Shown piece after piece: positions 29,752-44,963 of a stretch of 64,000 nucleotides of DNA. The notes below the pieces were generated by a model that searched no databases, had not been told where the DNA came from, and was given only the letters and a program-made list of their open reading frames with translations. Within the stretch, counting starts at the first letter, position 1; each line of letters opens with the position of its first letter. The DNA comes from Halarcobacter sp. (lineage in GTDB: Bacteria; Campylobacterota; Campylobacteria; Campylobacterales; Arcobacteraceae), in NCBI GenBank assembly GCA_048571215.1, contig CP182352.1, positions 352,001-416,000 of the forward strand, given 5' to 3'. A program made the position numbers and the translations under genes.

Positions 29752-29971
29752 TTAATTTTCTAAATTTTTTTTGATATTTTGAATAATAGTTTTAAATATT
29801 GGTAGATTGTATCTTATTACATCTTCTATAATATTTTCATCTGTACTATCATAGTCATGTGCAATATAATTTCTTACTGAACTAATACCTTTTAAATCTT
29901 CATTTGTAAAGTTCTCTAGTATTTTCAATACATTCTAAAATCTTATCTAATCGATTAATCACTTTAGACGT
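29752..29971 (-). pseudogene. HEPN/DUF86 toxin remnant
   Basis: Reads ...DLKGISSVRNYIAHDYD... (RxxxxH motif); ACG at the expected start, plus a frame break and internal deletion near 29925. Confidence 0.75.
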
Positions 29972-30263
29972 AAACTATGTCCTTCATGATTTTTTTATTT
30001 GTATCAGGTACAAAATCAACTGGTTGTTTGAAAATAGATTGTAGTTCATCTTTTATTGAATCAATTCTAAGAAGTTTAGAAAAACCACCAATATATTTTT
30101 TAGAAAACTTTTCATAATCTAACTTATAAGCAATATCAATATCACTATAGTCTGTGTTAGAATCTTTAGCATAACTACCAAATATTCCAACTATTTCTAA
30201 GCCTTCTTTTTGATATATTGGTTTTAGTTCTTTTAATTTATTTAGTATTTCTTCTTTTCTCAT
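29964..30263 (-). CDS. Minimal nucleotidyltransferase (MNT antitoxin)
   Basis: FGSYAK...SDIDI...VDFV. Confidence 0.88.
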   Translation of the reverse strand: MRKEEILNKLKELKPIYQKEGLEIVGIFGSYAKDSNTDYSDIDIAYKLDYEKFSKKYIGGFSKLLRIDSIKDELQSIFKQPVDFVPDTNKKIMKDIVYV

Positions 30264-30276
30264 AGTTGCTATTATA

Positions 30277-30415
30277 TCATAATTTTGTTTTTATCCATAG
30301 TTCAATTTTTTCCTCTTCCCAAACAGTAACCCTAGGGCTTAATTTTATAGGTTTAGGAAATTTATCTTCCTTAACTCATAACCAAATGGTACTTTTAGCA
30401 AGTGCAGTTTTTTTA
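30277..30415 (-). pseudogene. AlpA-family excisionase/regulator remnant
   Basis: KKTALAKSTIWL*VKEDKFPKPIKLSPRVTVWEEEKIELW with in-frame TGA; paralogous to 35735-35935. Confidence 0.75.
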
Positions 30416-30462
30416 TATCTAATTTTTTTAATAATAAAAAGATAATTTAAATTGTTGGCAGT

Positions 30463-31007
30463 TGTCTTATAGAGCAAAGCTCTCCGCTTTCTCACTTTTT
30501 AGTTGTAAAAAGTAAGACAAAAAGCAACCAGACGGTTGTTGAAGCTAAAGTTCTCTCCAGCTTTATAATTATCTTCTGACCTGCGGGGCTTGATATAAAA
30601 CGTGACATTCAGTCACCTTTTATATCTTCGAACAAGTCCTCGGTCTTTTCCGAAAATAATTAGAAAACTTCCGGCTTCAACAAAGTCTGGACTAAAATAC
30701 TCTAGCCTTGAATTTTTAAAATAGTTATTGAGTATTACACTAGCTTAAATATAATGGTACTAAAAAATGTAAAGGTCAATTTCCCACCTTCCCGCATTTG
30801 AGAAGCCGAGTGTTTATTTGTCTCTTTTGAAAACAAGTGACTAAACTGTTTGAAGCGTAAAGAAACGTTCTGGGAGAACGTTTTAGCAAGTTTTTAGGCA
30901 CTCAAAAGGGATGAATAAAAAGCTCGGAAAGCTTCCGCCTTCGAAACTCTGTGGGTGGTTTTTTTGCTACTTTTTTTTTCACAAAAAAAAGTCGAGAAAG
31001 TTAAGAC
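30463..31007. repeat. Structured non-coding element, copy A (two inverted arms)
   Basis: Homologous to 31067-32872 and 35921-36130; many stems with compensatory changes; bounded by GTCTT...AAGAC. Confidence 0.8.
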
Positions 31008-31536
31008 GTACAGTAAAAGTTTATTTATACTCAAATATTTTGATAATAGTTCTTATTGTATGCATCTGTCTTGTAGAACAAAGTTCTCCGCTTTCTCACT
31101 TTTTAATTGTAAAAAGTAAGGCAAAAAGCAACCAGACGGTTGTCGAAGCTAAAGTTCCCTCCCACTTCACTTTTTAAAGCTAGCCTGCAAAACTCCTCGA
31201 AAAAGTGACATCTAGTCACTTTTCTCTCGTCAGACAGTTTCGGCTTTTTCCGCTTTAAAAAGCAAAGCACTCGGCTTCAACAAAGTCTGGACTAAATACA
31301 CTAGCCACGAACTTTCTCTTAGTAATTGAGTATCACAGTAATTTTGAATGTAATGGTATAAAAAAATGCAAACATCCTTATCCCTTTCCAACATCTGCAA
31401 GAACTGGAGATTTATGAAATGTTTACGGTGAAAAGTGAGGAATGTGTGAGCGTAAAAAAAGAGTGACTAACTCACTCTTTTAGCGAGTTGCCACCTTAAA
31501 AGAATATAAAAATTCCATATAAAATTTATAATAAAA

Positions 31537-32508
31537 TTAAATTTTTTCTGAATCATATGGTACATTATTTTTATATACGGCATGAGCAATAACTAATAGT
31601 TTTCTCATAATTGCTACTTGTATAACTGTAGTATGTTTTCCATTTTCTTTTAGTCTATCATAAAACTTTCTTAATCTTTCGTTATTTCTTATTGATGTCA
31701 TTGCTGGCATAAACAAAGTACCTCTACATATTTTTGAACCTGCTTTTGATATTTTTGTTTTTCCATTAACTGATATACCTGAACTTTTTTCTATTGGATC
31801 TAATCCTGCTAAAGATACTATCTGTTTTTGATTAGCATTTTTATATTGAATAAAATGTATAAGTAATACAATTGAAGATATTTCTCCTATACCATCAATT
31901 GTTTGCAAATTATTAAATGATTGTTGAAGTTTCTCATCTTTTTTTATGATTGATTTTATTTTTTTGATAATTTTTTGTTCTTGTTTTTTTAAAAATTGAT
32001 ATTGTAATTCAAACTCTTTTATCAAATAGCTTTTATCTTTTTTTGCTTTTAAAGCAGCTATATGGTTTTTAGTTATAACTTGTTGTTTAATAATTAATTT
32101 ATATCCAGAAATAAGCTCTTTTAATTCTTCTTCTATGGTATCTACAATAGGTATTTTAATATCTTTATCTTTAGCTGTAACAATCATTTTAGATAAAAGC
32201 TGTGCATCTTTTATATCATTTTTATTTCTATATCCCATTACTTTTGCAAAGCTAGCACTTTTTTTAGGATTTACTATAAAGCTTTTTATATTTTTGTTTG
32301 CACAAAACTGTTTTAAAAGAAATGAATAATTAGCTGTTGGTTCATAAACAAATACTAATTTATCTATCTCTTTTTTATAAAGCTTTTTTAGTTTAGAGTA
32401 CAAACTTTTTATTCCATTTAAACTATTATCAATAATTAAATCTAAATCATTTATTGGAATATAAACATTAATTGTTGACTTACTTACATCTAATCCGATA
32501 GAATACAT
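31537..32508 (-). CDS. IS110 DEDD recombinase/transposase
   Basis: IGLDVSK, YEPT, KNDIKDA, TIDGIG, AGLDP..KSSG, AIMRKL. Confidence 0.93.
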   Translation of the reverse strand: MYSIGLDVSKSTINVYIPINDLDLIIDNSLNGIKSLYSKLKKLYKKEIDKLVFVYEPTANYSFLLKQFCANKNIKSFIVNPKKSASFAKVMGYRNKNDIKDAQLLSKMIVTAKDKDIKIPIVDTIEEELKELISGYKLIIKQQVITKNHIAALKAKKDKSYLIKEFELQYQFLKKQEQKIIKKIKSIIKKDEKLQQSFNNLQTIDGIGEISSIVLLIHFIQYKNANQKQIVSLAGLDPIEKSSGISVNGKTKISKAGSKICRGTLFMPAMTSIRNNERLRKFYDRLKENGKHTTVIQVAIMRKLLVIAHAVYKNNVPYDSEKI

Positions 32509-32574
32509 TTCTAGAACCTTTATTTTAGGATAAAGAGTTCGTTAGGGTAGGATTTCTCCTACCTGATAATTGTT

Positions 32575-32760
32575 ATACAAACTTTAGACTTATAAAATAC
32601 GAACTAGTTATAAAACTGTTCTTGTTGCCACTCAAATTTAAAGTATAACTATCAAACTCGCCATCAAGCTAATTATAAATTATTTTTTATAATTGCTTTA
32701 GTTCCGCAACGATATATTATCTTTCAAACTCTTTGGAAATATATTAACTATATTCCCTTA
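32575..32760 (-). ncRNA. IS110 bridge RNA (ends approximate)
   Basis: Two stem-flanked internal loops whose guides match the target (32700-32711, 32655-32661) and donor (32624-32631, 32588-32594); TATAAT on the minus strand at 32766-32771. Confidence 0.8.
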
Positions 32761-33137
32761 AATGTATTATATAAGTTCCGCAACGTAGTAAATATTTTAT
32801 AAATCGGAAGGCACCTTTAGGTTCTGAAGCCGTTGTGGCTTTTTTGCTTCTTTTTTACCACCAAAAAAGATGATATTATAGAAAAGAGGAAAAGGTGATT
32901 GTCCCCTTTTACTCACTCAATTATTTTATAAATAGAATTGTACTTTTAAGAAAAGGTACCTTTTATCTTTTATCTGTCCTATTTTATCTATCTTAAATTA
33001 TAAAAGTGGAGACTCATCCGCAGGGGTTTTACTTTGGGTGTTACTTTAAAACTATATAATATTTTATAATGGTTTTAATTGTTTTTATTCTTATAAAAGA
33101 TAAAATAAGAGTAATTTTAAATAATAAAGAGAGATAT

Positions 33138-34955
33138 ATGAAGTTACAATTTTTAAAACCTTATCCTAATTCATCTATTACAGAAAAATTTGAAGATATT
33201 GAAATTAATGATTTTGCCATTATAACAGGTAAAAATGGAGTAGGAAAAACTCACTTACTAGAAGCAATTGTACATAATGATAATTATATAAATATAGATG
33301 GTGGTGTAAATGCAATATATTTTAATTATAATGATTTTGTTGTTGAAAACACTTCATCTAATCAGCAAAAAAATAAATCACAATTAAAGAAAAAAAACAG
33401 TAATGCACATAATATAAATCAAGAGTTACAAAATGTAAAAAATAGAATTAGTCAATCTATACGTACACCATTAATAAATGCTTTTCGTGAAAATAATCAA
33501 TTAATTAATCAAGTTTACTCTTATATTTTAAATAGAGTTGAGTTTTTAAATATTCCTTCATTTGATGAATTTCAAAGTAACTTAATAAGGTATACAAATG
33601 ATATTGAGCTTTTAAATAGTATATATACTCTTTTAAATCAATCAGTTGATGATTTTTCTAAAACAAAAGATAAAAAGTTTAATTTTTATTATAAAAAAGC
33701 AAATAGTTTAAATTTATCTATTCAACAAATAAATAATACTCATTTAGAATATAAAGAAACTTGGCTTGGACAACTTTTAGAGAATGAATTTAAAGGTTAT
33801 ATAAAAGCCTTTGACAAAGCTCAAAGAAAAATTATTAGGAATAGTTCTAAAAACATAACGCAAGCAGAAATTGAAGAAAGAATAATAAAAGAGGTTGGAG
33901 TAGCACCTTGGATTATGCTAAATGAAATATTAGAAATGTATAGTTGTAATGGTTATATTATAGATAGAGATCTTGCATATGGCATAGAAACTTACCAAAA
34001 TATAGACCAACAACCATTAAATATAGTATTGAAAAATTATAAAATTGATAGAACAATTAATTTAGATAGATTATCGTCAGGAGAGAAAACTTTATTTGCA
34101 CTTGCAGTAGCACTATATCGTCAAGAGAAGGACAAAAATTTACCAACAGTATTACTTCTAGATGAAATTGATAGTTCTTTACATCCTTCTATGTGTAGGC
34201 AACTTTTAGATGTTTTAGAAAATGTGTTTGTAAAGAAACATAATTTAAAGATTATTATGGTGACTCATTCTCCTTCAACAGTTGCATTAGCCCCTGATGA
34301 TTCAGTATATGTATTAGAAAATAATAATGGAAAAATTAATTTAGAAAATAAAAATAAAGATGAAGCTATCAAGTTCTTGTCAGATGGTTTTGCTACATTT
34401 AATGATGGACTTTTATTTTTAGATAGACTATTAAATAATGATAAAAAAATATCAATTTTAACAGAAGGTAAGAACACTTTATATATAGAAAAAGCTATAT
34501 CTTTACTTGCTCCTGAAATATCAAATGATATAGAAGTTATAAAGGGAGCAGAATCAAAAAGTGGAAAAACTCAGTTGAAAACTTTGTTTGATTTCATTTC
34601 AAAAATTAAACATAACCAGACAATATTTTTTATTTGGGATGGCGATTGTAGTGAATATACAAAATTAGAAGAAGAAAATAATATTATACCTTTTATTTTT
34701 GAAAAAAATAATGATAATGAAATTTCAAAAAAAGGTATTGAAAATCTTTTTAGAGAAGAATTATTTGAAGGTTTTTATACTGAAATAAAGAAATCAGATG
34801 GAATTATATATAAAACATTCGAAGAAAATAGAAAAAATGATTTTTTTAATTTAATTGAAGAAAGAAATCAAAAAGATGATTTTGAAAAGTTTAAGCCTTT
34901 AGTTCAAATACTAACTGATAAAATAAAAGGAGATTCTAAATTAAAAAATCAATAA
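33138..34955 (+). CDS. ABC-type ATPase fused to a C-terminal TOPRIM-like domain (OLD-like, probable defence protein)
   Basis: GKNGVGKT, LSSGEK, LLLDEID, VTHSP, then LTEGK, WDGD, GIENLF; start taken as ATG 33138. Confidence 0.75.
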   Translation: MKLQFLKPYPNSSITEKFEDIEINDFAIITGKNGVGKTHLLEAIVHNDNYINIDGGVNAIYFNYNDFVVENTSSNQQKNKSQLKKKNSNAHNINQELQNVKNRISQSIRTPLINAFRENNQLINQVYSYILNRVEFLNIPSFDEFQSNLIRYTNDIELLNSIYTLLNQSVDDFSKTKDKKFNFYYKKANSLNLSIQQINNTHLEYKETWLGQLLENEFKGYIKAFDKAQRKIIRNSSKNITQAEIEERIIKEVGVAPWIMLNEILEMYSCNGYIIDRDLAYGIETYQNIDQQPLNIVLKNYKIDRTINLDRLSSGEKTLFALAVALYRQEKDKNLPTVLLLDEIDSSLHPSMCRQLLDVLENVFVKKHNLKIIMVTHSPSTVALAPDDSVYVLENNNGKINLENKNKDEAIKFLSDGFATFNDGLLFLDRLLNNDKKISILTEGKNTLYIEKAISLLAPEISNDIEVIKGAESKSGKTQLKTLFDFISKIKHNQTIFFIWDGDCSEYTKLEEENNIIPFIFEKNNDNEISKKGIENLFREELFEGFYTEIKKSDGIIYKTFEENRKNDFFNLIEERNQKDDFEKFKPLVQILTDKIKGDSKLKNQ

Positions 34956-34981: not shown

Positions 34982-35187
34982 AAAATAAAGGAGACAGGCA
35001 CCTTTTTATATAAAACTAATTTGATAAAGATTCATTTTTAAAAAGTAGCTAAAAATTCATACATGGTGGAGATGTCATCCCTCGAAAATAAAGGAGACAG
35101 GCACCTTTTTATATAAAACTAATTTGATAAAGATTCATTTTCAAAAAGTAGCTAAAAATTCATACATGGTGGAGATGTCATCCCTCG
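34982..35187. repeat. 103-bp tandem duplication including a tmRNA 3'-end copy
   Basis: 34982-35084 and 35085-35187 differ by one base; TGGTGGAGATGTC at 35064 and 35167. Confidence 0.92.
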
Positions 35188-35711: not shown

Positions 35712-35734
35712 AAAAAATTATATCTAAAAAAAGA

Positions 35735-35935
35735 TTATATTTTTTTATTCATCCAATTATTAACTTTTTCCTCTTCCCAAACAGTAACCCTAGGGCTTAA
35801 TTTTATTGGTTTAGGAAATTTACCTTCTTTAACCCATAACCAAATGGTACTTTTAGCAAGTCTAGTTTTTTTATATCTAATTTTTTTAATAATAAAAAGA
35901 TAATTTAAATTGTTGGCAGTTGTCTTGTAGAGCAA
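35735..35935 (-). pseudogene. AlpA-family HTH/excisionase, N-terminally degenerate
   Basis: KKTRLAKSTIWLWVKEGKFPKPIKLSPRVTVWEEEKV; lacks the usual LLRLxEV start. Confidence 0.7.
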
Positions 35936-36130
35936 AGCTCTCCGCTTTCATACTTTTTAATTGTAAAAAGTATGGCTTGTGCTTGCACTCTCTTTGAGAA
36001 AAAGCAACCAGACACGTTGTTGAAGCTAAAGTTCCCTCCCACTTTACTTTTTTAAAGCTAGTCTGCGAAACTCTTTGCTACTTTCTTTTTTACAAAAGAA
36101 AGTCGGAATAAGTTAAGACGTACAGTAAAA
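35921..36130. repeat. Structured element, copy C (internally deleted)
   Basis: Left start joined at CGAAACTC (36083) to the terminal TTTGCTACTTT...AAAGTCG...AAGACGTACAGTAAAA. Confidence 0.8.
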
Positions 36131-36368
36131 ATATATTTGAAATCAAATATTTTATAAATAGAATTGCACTTTTAAGAAAAGGTGCTTGACCCATTATATC
36201 TATCTAAATTATAAAAGTGGAGATTCATCCTCAGGGGTGTTACTTTCACCAAAGGTGACAAATGAAATAAAAAATATTTGAGAATGTATTTATTTTGATT
36301 ACAATTTGCAATAGAATTTATAAACATATAAATTATTTGATAAAATATCTTAATTAAAGGAGAAAAAT

Positions 36369-37709
36369 ATGATATTTACACAATATGATTTTGAAAAGTT
36401 TAGAGACGATCCCTCTAAGTTTATGGAAGAGGTTACAAAAAAAATCAATCAAGGTGACACAAAAATGATTCTTGCAAAAGAGCCAATTAATGATAAGTAT
36501 CCAAAAGAAGAAGGTATATTTTTTATTCATAACAAATTAATGAATTTAGAAGATATTTCAACAAATAATATTGCTGAGTCATTAAAAGATTACACTGATT
36601 TTATGAAAAAACATAAAATAAAAGTTATAAAAGAATATGATTCTGAATGTTCTTTAGCATATAAAGGTGAAATTCCAAAAATAAAAGTTGAAAACTTTGA
36701 AACACAATCCTTTTATAATTATGATAAATTTCAAATCATCGATGGATATACATTAAGTAGAAACGATAATCAAGATATCTTAGGGTATTTAAAACCAATT
36801 GATTATAGTTATGCCTTAGATAGTAATGCTGCATCTTTCTTTGCAAGATATATTAGCAATAATGATCTTAAATATAAGGACTTATATAATCAAATTATTT
36901 CAGACGAAAATAATATTGATATAGCACCATATATTTTCGAAACAGTTCTACATGGATTAAAAGATTTTGGTATAAATTATAAACTTAATAAGAAAAATAA
37001 AAATAAAACGCAGGCTGGTTTTTTTGAAACACTTAAAATTTTACATAGAGAAGGATTATTTAAAGAAAAATTAGGAAAGATATTTATCAATAATATTATA
37101 AATGGTACGAATCCTCTCATTAAATACTATGGAATATTAGGTTTTCAGTCACATTTATTTTTGCTTTATTTGTTAGAAGCAAGATATAAATTTGGGAAAG
37201 CTCCTAATAAAATAAAAGATTATGTTTATGATGAAATGAGGAAAACAAATATTCCAATAGAAAATAGATTTAAAGCACTAATATATCTTTTTTGTGATAA
37301 TCCTGGTCATAAATTCTTTGAAAAAGTTATAAACTTTCCTAAAAAAGCTTCGAATCTTGAGAATTACATGAAAAATGTAGATAATACAGGAAGAGATATT
37401 GCATTAATTTCGTTAGAAAAATATGTATATGGTAAATTGAATATTTACCCTTTTATGGCATCTGATGATGAAGGCTTAATAGAAATGTTTAAAGATACCA
37501 AGCCTGATTATGTTTTTATATTTGATGGTATGGCAAGTCCTATGTATAAAAAGATAAATAATGAAATGCAGAAAAAACATTTAAACTATTTTGAAACTAA
37601 TAATCCTAAAGATACAATTAAGTATCAAGAAGGAACACTAGAAGATCTAATTAAAACATATAAAGATAGAAAAAATTCTTTTATAAGCTTAATTGCTGAA
37701 AATAAATAA
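36369..37709 (+). CDS. Hypothetical protein with a possible PIN-like nuclease domain
   Basis: 446 aa, AAGGAG RBS; YALDSN...E...RD...SDD acidic pattern. Confidence 0.6.
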   Translation: MIFTQYDFEKFRDDPSKFMEEVTKKINQGDTKMILAKEPINDKYPKEEGIFFIHNKLMNLEDISTNNIAESLKDYTDFMKKHKIKVIKEYDSECSLAYKGEIPKIKVENFETQSFYNYDKFQIIDGYTLSRNDNQDILGYLKPIDYSYALDSNAASFFARYISNNDLKYKDLYNQIISDENNIDIAPYIFETVLHGLKDFGINYKLNKKNKNKTQAGFFETLKILHREGLFKEKLGKIFINNIINGTNPLIKYYGILGFQSHLFLLYLLEARYKFGKAPNKIKDYVYDEMRKTNIPIENRFKALIYLFCDNPGHKFFEKVINFPKKASNLENYMKNVDNTGRDIALISLEKYVYGKLNIYPFMASDDEGLIEMFKDTKPDYVFIFDGMASPMYKKINNEMQKKHLNYFETNNPKDTIKYQEGTLEDLIKTYKDRKNSFISLIAENK

Positions 37710-38418
37710 AGACAATATCTATAGAGAAAATGCACAATTTATAAATCAAGAAGGCAAAAAGAATAAAAGGATTATTGTGAAACATAGAAAAAATAAAAAT
37801 TTAAATAAAAAGAACTCTAATTTTCATATTATGGATAATCCTTTTAATGGATTATCGGAAGAACAAAGAAAGCAAGTGTTTGAGGATGTATCAAAAAAAG
37901 CTGAAGAAAAATATGAGCCAACAAAAGAAAAAATATTTGCTATTTTAAAAGAATATGATTTTAGACTTATATTATCATTCTTAGCTACTTATAATCTAAT
38001 GGCTAGTGTAGGAAGAAAGGGGATAAGTAAAGATAAAGAACCTTTCCTAACACAAGCTCATATTGAAATTTGTCAATCATTTATATTAACTATTCCTGAA
38101 GAAGAAATGAAATTCAAAGTTCCTCCTCATAGCATATACAAAGAACTAATGGATTTGTTAAAAGAACTTTTAGAATCTATACATTATAAAAATATGAAAG
38201 CTGATTTTATTGATTTAGAAGCAGAAAAGAAATCTCAAAAAATGATTCAAGAATTTGTTAAAAGTCATACTCAAGTTGTTCGTAATTGGGGCTCATTTTC
38301 TCAAGTAAAACAAATCACTAGTGAAATCTACTCAAAATTTGATGAAGAATTACAAAAAAACTATAATTATACTTGTAATAATTTAATTGAATTTTTCCAA
38401 TATCTGATAGGAAATTAG
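37693..38418 (+). pseudogene. Hypothetical protein, probably 3'-truncated at the cassette end
   Basis: Stop codon falls in the first bases of the 38411-38579 repeat; true start uncertain. Confidence 0.5.
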
Positions 38419-38579
38419 GGGTCATGCGATAACGATAACCTAGAAAAAAGATTAGAGGTACTTTTTATATATAAAAACTTACTGTGATACTTTTAGAAAA
38501 TTAAACGATAAAAATGATATAAGGACTATTGGACTTTTATTTAAGTAATAAAGTAATGGTGGAGATGTCCTGAATTGAA
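38411..38579. repeat. About 170-bp direct repeat (att arm plus tmRNA 3' end), copy 1
   Basis: Near-identical to 39550-39717; ends TGGTGGAGATGTCCTGAATTGAA. Confidence 0.92.
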
Positions 38580-39549: not shown

Positions 39550-39717
39550 GAAATTAGGGTTATGTGATAACGATAAGCTAGAAAAAAGATGAGAGGTACT
39601 TTTTATATATAAAAATTTACTGTGATACTTTTAGAAAATTAAATGATAAAAATGATATAAGGACTATTAGACTTTTATTTAAGTAATAAAGTAATGGTGG
39701 AGATGTCCGGAATTGAA
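39550..39717. repeat. About 170-bp direct repeat, copy 2 (attL-like, includes the true tmRNA 3' end)
   Basis: Matches 38411-38579, offset about 1138 bp. Confidence 0.92.
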
Positions 39718-40093
39718 CCGGAGTCTTAAAACAGCTATTACTAGCGTCTACATGTTTAGAAAAGGTTGAAAAATTTCACTTTGCAACTACTCAACCTGCA
39801 AGGCAATTGCGAAGCTAAGATTTAAAGTGTCTCAAATTAGCCAAATCAACTCTAAAATGATAATCTATCTAGGGTGAACCCACTAAAATCTACTTAGATA
39901 GAATCAGTAGTGTGAGCCTCCGAGGTCTCAAGCCGTAAGGCGAGTCCTATAAGTTGTTAAACTTACGCAGCTTTTGCGTAAGCTGGAGCGTAATTAGTAT
40001 TATTTGCGTCTAAAAAAAATGAACCGCGTAACGGCATGTTCAGGCCGACATGCAACTAATCCTCACTGCTCTAATCGATACCAAGTCATCCCC
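39695..40093 (-). ncRNA. ssrA: tmRNA
   Basis: 5' GGGGATGAC, 3' GGTTCAATTCCGGACATCTCCACCA; tag frame 39963-40007 encodes ANNTNYAPAYAKAA*. Confidence 0.97.
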
Positions 40094-43847: not shown

Positions 43848-44963
43848 ATGAATTTAAGTGATTTTGAAAAAACAAATTATAGCGGACTTTATATTTCAAA
43901 AGTTCCACATCCTGCATTTGGTAGAAAATATATTGCAAGATTTCAATACGATAAAAAAAGATACGTGAAGGTATTAGGATATACAAAAAAAGACAATTTA
44001 ACAAAAAAGGCAGCCTTAGAATTAATGCAAAAATTTAAAGAATCAATTGTTGTTACAAAAGAAGAAAATGAACAAGCAGATGAAAATCAAATAGCAATAG
44101 AAAAAGATAAATATCAAAAATTATTAGAAGAGAATAGAGAGTTAAAAAAAATATTAGGTGATTATAAAACTATTGACCCAGATATTTTAAAAGATGGTGT
44201 TCAAAAAATATATGATTTACAAGAGCTAAAAAGTTATCAAATTGAGTTAATCAAACTTCAAAACTATTTGGAAAATGAAAATAAAAGAATGATTATTTTA
44301 TTTGAAGGTAGAGATGCATCTGGTAAAGGTGGAGCTATTAGACGAATAACAAGATATATGAATAACAAACACTACAGAGTTGTTGCCTTAGGTAAACCAA
44401 CTGATACTCAAAAAAACCAATGGTTTTTTCAAAGATATATTCAACATTTTCCAACAGGTGGAGAGATAGTTTTATTTGACCGTTCTTGGTACAATAGAGC
44501 TATGGTAGAACCTATTTTTGGTTTTTGTACAAAAGAAGAGTATGAAATCTTTATGGAAGATGTGGTTAATTTTGAACAAGATTTAGTTAGACAAGGTATG
44601 ATTCTAATCAAACTTTATTTCTCAGTTTCGAAAGAGGAACAAAAAAGAAGATTTGATAGAAGAATAAACGATCCTTTAAGACATTGGAAATTTTCAGAAG
44701 TTGATATGCAAGCTCAAGATTTATGGAGTGAATTTTCTGAAAAAAAATATGAGATGCTTAGACGTACTTCTTCAAGAGCAGCACCTTGGCATATCGTAAG
44801 AAGTGATGATAAACATAAAGCAAGATTAGAGGCTATGAAGATTATTCTTAATTCTGTTGATTATGATGGAAGAAACTATGCCTTAGACTTTGAAGCTAAT
44901 GAGAGAATAAATATCTCAGTTCAAAGAGAGCTAATGCAAATGAGAAAAACTGCTAACTACTAA
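43848..44963 (+). CDS. ppk2: Polyphosphate kinase 2 with an extra N-terminal domain
   Basis: FEGRDASGKGG, FDRSWYNR; about 110 aa N-terminal extension. Confidence 0.9.
   Translation: MNLSDFEKTNYSGLYISKVPHPAFGRKYIARFQYDKKRYVKVLGYTKKDNLTKKAALELMQKFKESIVVTKEENEQADENQIAIEKDKYQKLLEENRELKKILGDYKTIDPDILKDGVQKIYDLQELKSYQIELIKLQNYLENENKRMIILFEGRDASGKGGAIRRITRYMNNKHYRVVALGKPTDTQKNQWFFQRYIQHFPTGGEIVLFDRSWYNRAMVEPIFGFCTKEEYEIFMEDVVNFEQDLVRQGMILIKLYFSVSKEEQKRRFDRRINDPLRHWKFSEVDMQAQDLWSEFSEKKYEMLRRTSSRAAPWHIVRSDDKHKARLEAMKIILNSVDYDGRNYALDFEANERINISVQRELMQMRKTANY

Follow-up and report, generated by a model that had tools for sequence, protein, structure and literature searches.

A two-armed repeat in a Halarcobacter genome

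The 64,000-nt stretch of Halarcobacter sp. DNA analyzed here (contig CP182352.1, positions 352,001 to 416,000; called the window below) carries three copies, A, B and C, of a noncoding repeat (Table 1). Each copy consists of two inverted versions of one ~230-nt arm. The structure of the arm is under selection, and its 3' end probably forms a triple helix within a pseudoknot; we argue that the repeat may act as folded single-stranded DNA (ssDNA).

The original prediction, made from the letters of the window, had described three copies without a credible open reading frame (ORF). This holds within the window, but the complete 3.61-Mb genome that contains it has 54 nonoverlapping pieces in 15 clusters (76 matches to a profile built from 17 near-full-length copies). 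The sole ORF over copy A (30911-31177, 88 amino acids) recurs only as translations of other copies. Copy C is indeed a third copy, but one in which an internal deletion joins the left-arm start to the right-arm end and which has received a 22-nt insert. The long pieces of run X4 are nearly identical to the window, and in this run the contig depth summed to 1469 for the element, 164 for the insertion sequence (IS) and ~53-60 for single-copy flanks; contig depth does not equal copy number, and these values are in line with a real multicopy repeat.

Table 1. Positions of the element, its parts and its inserts in the window
Position	Feature	Strand	Basis or remark
30458..31020	Copy A, complete two-armed element	left arm folds on -, right arm on +	
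30458..30700	Copy A left arm: long stem, diverged cap, 3' pseudoknot/putative triplex, terminal hairpin	-	DNA fold z -8.0; covariation
30471..30483	Left-arm terminal small hairpin	-	Covaries with 31075-31087; third at 35929
30494..30529	Left-arm 3' domain: pseudoknot 5' strand, T-rich third strand, A/T stem, loop	-	Helices 8 and 9 of covariation model
30528..30690	Left-arm long interrupted stem, closing pair CCAGAC/GTCTGG	-	Covariation
30589..30634	Left-arm tip: diverged cap loop and inner hairpin	-	
30691..30783	AT-rich linker between arms of copy A		
30728..30755	Promoter-like TTGAGT-N16-TATAAT in copy A linker, facing right arm		
30784..31015	Copy A right arm	+	DNA fold z -3.4; covariation
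30847..30892	Right-arm cap, TGTTTGA..GCAAGTT asymmetric loop with inner hairpin	+	
30955..30992	Right-arm 3' pseudoknot/putative triplex domain	+	
31016..31060	Conserved ~45-nt spacer joining tandem copies (600-nt period)		
31061..31296	Copy B left arm	-	Covariation
31297..31489	Copy B linker and 5' half of right-hand arm; cap 31443-31489	+	
31490..32773	IS110 in copy B, inserted in cap GCGAGTT, AGTT on both sides	-	Pfam PF01548 and PF02371 (DEDD and Tnp20 domains)
31537..32508	IS110 recombinase gene	-	
32588..32711	Predicted bridge-RNA-like noncoding end of IS110	-	Layout as in PMC11208160
32700..32711, 32655..32661	IS110 predicted target guides	-	Match the two sides of the insertion site
32624..32631, 32588..32594	IS110 predicted donor guides	-	
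32774..32872	Copy B right-hand arm, 3' half; pseudoknot/putative triplex 32835-32870	+	
32994..33035	Short accessory hairpin module	-	Second copy 36205-36246
35916..36130	Copy C: left-arm outer part and right-arm putative triplex (36071-36103)		
35977..35998	22-nt mini-hairpin insert after T run, left third strand of copy C	-	

Structure of the arms

Copy A folds better than its shuffled versions on both strands, with RNA and DNA parameters alike (z -6.4 to -6.7; none of 100 shuffles in each comparison). The stems quoted in the original prediction are present: terminal hairpins at 30471 and 31075, with a third at 35929, cap motifs at 30847-30892 and 31443-31489, and the long-range CCAGAC/GTCTGG helix at 30528/30685 and 31132/31285. 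The two halves had been seen as inverted versions of one module, and left arms, once reverse-complemented, do align with right arms as a single module; RNAalifold returned no consensus pairs for the merged left and right alignment. For the arms taken separately, it predicted 59 pairs in 16 left arms, 40 of them with two-sided change, and 49 pairs in 18 right arms, 23 with two-sided change. Including three pseudoknot pairs, the left-arm structure (16 sequences) leaves 92.9% of 989 cells paired, and 41 of its 62 pairs show two-sided change, in rows that are related and from which the structure itself was derived. None of 500 shuffles reached any of five measures, and slid registers gave at most 54.5% paired cells. 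The claimed covariation is thus upheld in both arms.

Three parts make up the arm: a long stem with interruptions, a tip capped by TGTyTGA…GCGAGTT, and a pseudoknot at the 3' end that includes a pyrimidine third strand. In the tip, TGTyTGA stands opposite the GA that precedes GTT, probably in tandem G.A pairs, and the pairs inside covary. The 3' domain runs in the order segment a, pyrimidine tract, G, short linker, ACTTT stem, loop containing a', and AAAGT stem. The end hairpin had been noted before (TTTTTG..ACTTTTT-loop-AAAAAGT) and is there, but the pseudoknot and putative triple helix at the same place had been missed. A descriptor of the cap plus 3' domain matched the genome 24 times, always inside copies (24/24), and matched none of four shuffled genomes. 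A count of inverted boxes at the right ends (20/88) is swamped by chance matches.

The accessory hairpin module at 32994-33035 has 13 near-exact copies in the genome and opens most right-arm-only copies elsewhere. By eye, a further basal helix may close the whole arm by pairing its 5' flank with the sequence after the putative triplex (30765-30778 with 31003-31015); the same was seen by eye in Ralstonia arms (L036, L214 and others). One copy of a 185-nt repeat stands before copy A (30276-30460) and another before copy C (35734-35918); the two are 91% identical and have no further counterpart in the genome.

A mirror third strand in the 3' domain

Between the pyrimidine tract and the purine strand of the stem, runs of T.A-T and C.G-C triads are longer than expected. 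The mean run was 5.96 against 4.03±0.12 in partner swaps for 112 arms, 5.73 against 4.26±0.17 for 52 Arcobacteraceae domains and 5.81 against 4.05±0.14 for 72 held-out domains, and no swap reached the observed value in any of the three sets. The 112 arms are the parsed part of 137; unparsed matches (25/137, and 20/117 distinct ones), some of them chance or degenerate, are left out of the 3'-domain counts. The third strand was classed as mirror only, direct only, both or neither in 44, 1, 19 and 4 Arcobacteraceae domains and in 32, 0, 13 and 2 held-out domains, so that 76 of the 77 discriminating cases show a mirror of the stem and only one a direct repeat. Because a mirror can neither come from duplication nor serve an alternative Watson-Crick fold, we read the third strand as part of a triple helix. 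Triads with C are protonated, which disfavors adjacent C residues, and the held-out domains match this expectation, with adjacent C in 0 of 72 triad runs. The pseudoknot helix between segment a and the loop is also longer than in swaps (3.90 versus 2.88, 3.21 versus 2.71 and 4.32 versus 3.15 in the three sets).

The 3' domain is therefore probably an H-type pseudoknot that contains a pyrimidine-motif triple helix, its T/C loop occupying the major groove of an A/G-rich stem, and the triplex may form in vivo. The domain is A/T-rich, with the Hoogsteen strand first; in the classification of PMC4666352 the cap strand has the class IV order and the opposite strand that of class II.

Distribution of the arm

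Collection of homologs by BLASTN, which had been proposed as a check, detected the window element in 20 of 24 other congeneric genomes and in 22 of 36 genomes of the family; outside the family, 2 of 24 genomes gave weak matches (E 1.6e-4). A pattern read from the arms of the window's genome (cap, 45-75 nt, TACTTT, with the first G of the cap loop fixed) matched 9 viral loci and at least 121 loci in GTDB genomes, and with a TGTC variant at least 120 metagenome loci and 1 viral locus. Among the GTDB matches listed are Beta-, Gamma- and Deltaproteobacteria, Bacteroidota, Bacillota, Saccharibacteria, Gracilibacteria, Nitrospirota, Ignavibacteria and Elusimicrobia. The matched loci also possess features that the pattern does not contain, namely the long stem, the AAAGT partner, the third strand and the pseudoknot. 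Since Arcobacteraceae hold both the long-tip form and a short form with a GNA cap, the arms of the window can be tied to the general form.

Counts of exact caps in five genomes (from Ralstonia, Parabacteroides, Haemophilus and Capnocytophaga) were 58, 49, 10, 5 and 1, compared with 0-1 in controls; across genomes, cap copy number ranges from 0 to 58 and presence is patchy. In 301 Campylobacterota, a cap-only pattern gave 19 positives, chance hits included (L289 lies inside an ORF, and a reversed control matched several genomes). Close pairs in the fetched loci, which are not independent, were divergent in 36 cases, tandem in 3 and convergent in none, and some pairs enclose genes (L207, L208). 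The window element had no plasmid match and the Haemophilus pair no phage match; a search of this kind with the Ralstonia pair returned 156 records, 135 of them from Ralstonia, and those among the matches listed were mostly megabase replicons. Judged by these matches, the arm is a pan-bacterial, apparently undescribed element.

Persistence and rearrangement at orthologous sites

The element is long-lived and recombinogenic rather than freshly jumping, and it is kept at orthologous sites across whole genera. At one Ralstonia site, 26 loci comprised 20 with both caps, 2 with one cap, 1 with none and 3 incomplete (both caps in 20/23 complete loci); two further genomes were unscored and two had no match. 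At the Haemophilus fabD/fabH site, 20 loci comprised 15 with both caps, 2 with one, 2 with none and 1 incomplete (both in 15/19 complete loci), and the whole element is inverted between loci, 10 in one orientation and 5 in the other. In the host genus the element starts within ~130 nt 3' of rplT in 4 of 25 rows and further on in 2, and was not found in 19. At three orthologous sites, the alleles without the element appear to be deletions or to consist of unrelated sequence. Within the window's genome, five segments compared among 17 copies show mean differences of 17-29%, and the pairwise distances of one segment do not correlate with those of another (rho -0.08 to 0.15), which indicates that modules have been shuffled among copies. 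The suggestion of a mobile or REP-like element is thus supported in that the repeat is multicopy, patchy and targeted by IS110 elements, but its fixed sites across genera, with neither target-site duplication nor a clean empty site, speak against mobility.

These patterns bear on two further explanations. The repeat might be selfish or decayed, its structure a by-product of copying (fold-back synthesis, slippage, gene conversion) with no present function, as frequent deletions, truncations and inserts and the patchy presence would allow. Fold-back, however, gives inverted repeats and slippage direct ones; neither yields the mirrors, the covarying pseudoknot or the same cap in many phyla, and both caps are kept at most complete orthologous sites. 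We consider this explanation very improbable, and the mirror covariation has already largely refuted it. Alternatively, the arms could be single-strand initiation or restart signals (primosome-assembly or primase hairpins) that make either strand primable and help replication restart or the conversion of incoming ssDNA. One folded arm per strand and retention at fixed sites would suit this role, as would the GNA mini-hairpins of the arms, since such hairpins occur in phage and plasmid single-strand origins. However, the missing plasmid and phage matches for the window element and the Haemophilus pair, respectively, the copy number of 0 to 58, and the absence of a leading/lagging (replichore) bias among the genome's clusters, as judged by eye, make a priming role quite improbable. 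The cumulative GC skew of the genome is lopsided, with a minimum near 3.42 Mb and a maximum near 1.14 Mb, which suggests a large inversion or unequal replichores.

IS110 elements and mini-hairpin inserts

The insertion suspected in copy B is an IS110 element that sits in the conserved cap motif. All seven IS110 copies in the genome lie inside the repeat, three in the cap GCGAGTT and four in the third strand, and their noncoding ends share one scaffold, differing in two target guides that match the two sites. Thirty loci of this IS110 clade comprise 16 in arm motifs, 11 with other guides and 3 without the scaffold. Nine of the 16 carry the cap 3' guide (four genomes), one carries the third-strand guide, and six carry a third guide, for the 5' side of the cap (three genomes). 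By their guide sequences, these IS110s appear to be parasites of the element, with at least three guide sets that would aim at three conserved spots. Like the IS110 bridge-RNA recombinases of PMC11208160, they show the LTG/RTG/LDG/RDG layout with guides that match their sites; unlike the situation described there, they are passengers parasitizing the repeat. In genome G021, the accessory hairpin module is itself targeted by IS110s (L446, L451).

The genome also holds 17 mini-hairpins of 20-23 nt, which are of two kinds and in each case follow a T run; 15 are inside copies, and the two outside (G000:C1:717711 and 724687) lie in a duplicated stretch. The terminal TGTC tag on one kind recalls the CGTC/TGTC repeats of PMC3733652.

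A second repeat family, of the GGGGACAGGCACC type, is found at 34982-35187 of the window and at G000:C1:2553762-2560911, where it flanks the genome's one RAYT-like gene. It separates an array of polymorphic-toxin-like C-terminal cassettes. At several junctions of the array there is an IS110 right end but no recombinase gene, and guides for this repeat are found in further IS110s of the clade.

Neighboring genes and the search for a partner enzyme

The original prediction had advised looking for cooccurring HUH/RAYT transposases, reverse transcriptases or integrases; none goes with the element in the Y1, PF00078 and integrase searches. The genome's RAYT-like gene lies beside a different repeat, as noted above. 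The complete genome has no reverse transcriptase match to PF00078 (a control matched 3/14), and a GIY-YIG search yielded only long frames (489-672 amino acids) with no arm nearby.

In the window's genome, copies lie at core-gene ends and between runs of accessory genes, with co-oriented arms, for example, at 1,704-1,722 kb. Such an arrangement could be produced by complex attC-like recombination sites, between which a tyrosine recombinase moves genes via folded single strands. The co-oriented arms separating accessory-gene runs, the match of 16 of 58 hand-picked neighbors to PADLOC models (without a control set), the presence of an integron integrase in the genome and the precedent of a complex attC-like motif in PMC5737381 all favor this idea. 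The chromosomal integron (G000:C1:895239-900500, behind guaA), however, has a few cassettes, a first gene that is TIR/SEFIR-like by eye and attC-like sites of its own, and its integrase is ~61 kb from the nearest copy; no integron integrase passed the cutoff in the element-bearing genomes G064, G061, G063 and G006. The base pairs closing the cap vary across 128 arms, with no fixed AAC/GTT, and in other phyla the neighbors of arms are mostly housekeeping genes. Since, in addition, the one strain difference in the window ends at a repeat of the transfer-messenger RNA (tmRNA) end and not at an arm, we regard an attC-like role as improbable.

That strain difference is an 8.3-kb skip in a related strain (run X5), which joins 30258 directly to 38557. 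Excision at arm ends was ruled out as its cause, because the skip ends at the tmRNA-end repeat. Four tmRNA 3'-end repeats (35063, 35166, 38556 and 39694) in the region of the window's copies mark stacked island remnants, and because they lie there and the strain difference ends at one of them, the cargo genes of the window appear to have come with tmRNA-targeted islands. The stretch 38421-38579 duplicates 39559-39717.

Other genes around the copies include an AAA ATPase that matches ATPase-Toprim/AriA-type defense models (33069-34955, +), with, beside it, a lone nucleotidyltransferase (29964-30263) whose downstream partner looks broken; two ORFs with neither a Pfam match over the cutoff nor a PADLOC match (36369-37709 and 37693-38418, +); and a polyphosphate-kinase-2-like ORF (43848-44963, +) whose N-terminal stretch resembles, by eye, the start of an integrase at G000:C1:2205930. 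ORF6N-domain genes adjoin two truncated copies (G000:C1:266955-267470 and 2203797-2204633) and do not recur beside arms in other taxa.

DNA or RNA

The original prediction had left the choice between a structured RNA pair and structured ssDNA, and it is the latter that is better supported. The cap strand folds better than the opposite strand in 124 of 128 arms with RNA parameters and in 121 of 128 with DNA parameters. GNA triloops stabilize DNA and not RNA. The cap loops of the 128 arms comprise 88 GNA, 10 GNYA and 1 GNRA, and those of a second set of 117 arms comprise 88 GNA, 16 nested GNA, 8 GNYA and 1 GNRA; the first G is fixed by the pattern and the closing A is free. In other hairpins of the arms, the cap strand exceeds the opposite strand in GNA triloops (32 versus 8), with GNRA at 5 versus 3 and UUCG at 1 versus 0. 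The converse argument was used for UUCG in PMC2864571. In 65 loci with both flanking genes (80 were examined, 15 of which lacked one flank), the arm is antisense to both genes 22 times and sense 17 times; it lies between convergent genes at 17 loci and between divergent ones at 9. On account of the GNA caps and the lack of a gene-orientation preference, we favor ssDNA, at about two to one over RNA, as the probable form of the fold.

Should the arms act as RNA, they would be small RNAs or a two-way 3'-end module, with copies spread and homogenized by ordinary recombination. A transcript from either side would then end in a folded arm whose pseudoknot and U.A-U triplex could block 3' exonucleases or pause polymerase, and whose kink-turn-like tip could bind a protein. 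In the window's host a promoter-like pair precedes the right arm, and right-arm-only copies open with a module containing TATAAT. Of the 65 loci, 56 have one or more genes whose 3' end is turned toward the arm; strand asymmetry is greater with RNA parameters, and pyrimidine intrastrand triplexes form in RNA too (PMC4666352). The loops, however, are GNA rather than GNRA or UUCG, arms antisense to both flanks are as common as sense ones (22 versus 17), and the Ralstonia and Parabacteroides linkers are variable, consisting of simple repeats or genes with no shared promoter by eye. We regard an RNA role as possible but rather unlikely.

Relation to known families

That the element belongs to no named family was confirmed: at the gathering score, Rfam 15 matched only the tmRNA gene (39695-40093) in the window, and neither the 9 viral loci nor 6 further loci from three other genera gave a match. 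It behaves like a relative of REPINs and BoxC but is a member of neither, and its structure is unlike that of any family tested.

Like the BoxC, PIT and TM-ECO elements (PMC4666352), it is extragenic and multicopy with a potential intrastrand triplex (here the mirror third strand), often in inverted pairs of two types, with no link to gene orientation and with variable copy number. TM-ECO is a short, G/C-rich, purine-motif class II triplex, whereas the triplex proposed here is A/T-rich and of the pyrimidine motif (class IV order), in a pseudoknot behind a ~150-nt capped stem; the G/C-rich class II pattern is absent from it. The 21 Haemophilus influenzae PIT elements (Hoyne et al. 2000, via PMC4666352) may be the reverse strand of this 3' domain. 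With REPINs and REP-BIMEs (PMC3116915 and PMC3733652) it shares an inverted doublet unit (36/39 close pairs divergent), extragenic and chromosomal placement and targeting by the IS110 family. Its arms, in contrast, are ~200-250 nt long with several domains, ~10 times the length of a REP, rather than 20-40-bp palindromes; each folds alone with tertiary structure, and no RAYT flanks them. With regard to miniature inverted-repeat transposable elements, the arms are inverted paralogues whose outer ends have only a short, weak likeness; no matching transposase was found, nor were target-site duplications in the flanks or clean empty sites.

The attC sites and the attC-like DUF1874 motif (PMC5737381) resemble the arm in a strand-asymmetric fold with bulges, in copies between accessory genes (in this genome) and in IS110-family targeting. 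They differ in that the arm has no fixed AAC/GTT core and no linked integrase, forms divergent pairs, has housekeeping neighbors in other phyla and gave no match to the Rfam DUF1874 model. TD-1 and TD-2 of Treponema denticola (PMC1950547; RF03162) are likewise multicopy, covarying intergenic motifs that overlap on opposite strands, but the TD-2 match over the element is below threshold (23.8 bits against a gathering cutoff of 48.7, E 0.64), and the available part of the TD description mentions no triplex. Desulfotalea-1, GUCCY-hairpin and Nitrosococcus-1 (PMC2864571) were rejected because they differ in sequence, and sub-threshold Rfam miRNA models because they are generic hairpins. The H. influenzae repeat family of PMC2267715 is DUS-based. 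Five motif strings were absent from the part of the PMC2864571 alignments covered, where gaps can hide matches, and from the searched supplements of PMC8040213, files 7 and 8 left out. No earlier description was found in mostly open-access full text; the list of Hoyne et al. (2000) or some supplements may hold part of the family.

In the triplexes of telomerase RNA and of ENE-type 3' stabilizers, too, the pseudoknot is H-type and a U-rich loop occupies the major groove of an A-U stem. Unlike those RNAs, which are single loci, the element is a dispersed doublet whose loop signatures point to DNA.

Proposed role

With a probability of roughly 0.5, we propose that the element is a domesticated repeat that works as folded ssDNA, one arm per strand, bound by a structure-specific factor that promotes strand exchange between copies. 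The unit of this chromosomal, gene-free family would be an arm of ~200-250 nt that folds when its strand is single stranded. Its tip would hold an asymmetric loop containing tandem G.A pairs, to which a C-GNA-G mini-hairpin is added in arms from outside this host group. As the arms stand back to back, either exposed strand, in a lagging-strand gap, a repair gap or incoming DNA, would carry one folded arm. A structure-specific host or trans-acting factor, for which REPINs suggest an HUH-type nickase as the likeliest candidate, may bind cap and triplex and start strand exchange between copies. Such exchange would shuffle modules, invert or delete the pair and occasionally seed a new site; in this genome it would leave accessory genes strung between copies.

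Several observations weigh against this proposal. No gene family recurs beside arms of unrelated taxa (all-against-all comparison of 782 and 861 ORFs), nor does any domain in a Pfam search of 72 of the 144 nearest ORFs; Y1 searches found no arm within 1.5 kb at 40 loci (0/40) and no Y1 match in the element-rich genomes G006, G023 and G033. The flanks of the genome's copies lack target-site duplications, no clean empty site was seen, and one convergent pair exists elsewhere (genome G025). Relatedness and gene conversion inflate all counts, and the GNA count has its pattern-fixed first G. The window host's own arms lack GNA loops, their tips carrying other loops. In 13 of 17 copies a sigma-70 promoter-like hexamer pair, TTGAGT followed 16-17 nt on by a -10-like hexamer, faces the right arm, and G.T exceeds A.C modestly (194 versus 140). 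A pyrimidine triplex in a pseudoknot and a kinked loop with tandem G.A pairs are both best known from RNA.

A bolder version, which we offer tentatively, is that the arm is a pan-bacterial ssDNA device with tertiary structure (a GNA-capped stem plus a pseudoknotted triplex), read by a conserved protein and serving as a two-strand landing and strand-exchange site for gene acquisition and rearrangement. It would then be the first natural, covariation-supported DNA triplex-pseudoknot selected across phyla, against which IS110s have been programmed at least three times.

The BoxC/PIT work found no in vivo effect, and the role of bacterial intrastrand triplexes has been open since (PMC4666352). Here, third strand, pseudoknot and stem covary across phyla, and natural variants define the bases to change, which makes the role of the triplex directly testable. 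If the fold is RNA, the arm would be a widespread bacterial triple-helix 3' module absent from Rfam. If it is DNA, it would be a rare natural DNA triple helix kept by evolution and would widen the biology of folded ssDNA beyond simple hairpins such as attC and REP. The element would also be a natural, multicopy, nonessential target of three differently programmed IS110 bridge systems, offering guide/target pairs on one scaffold.

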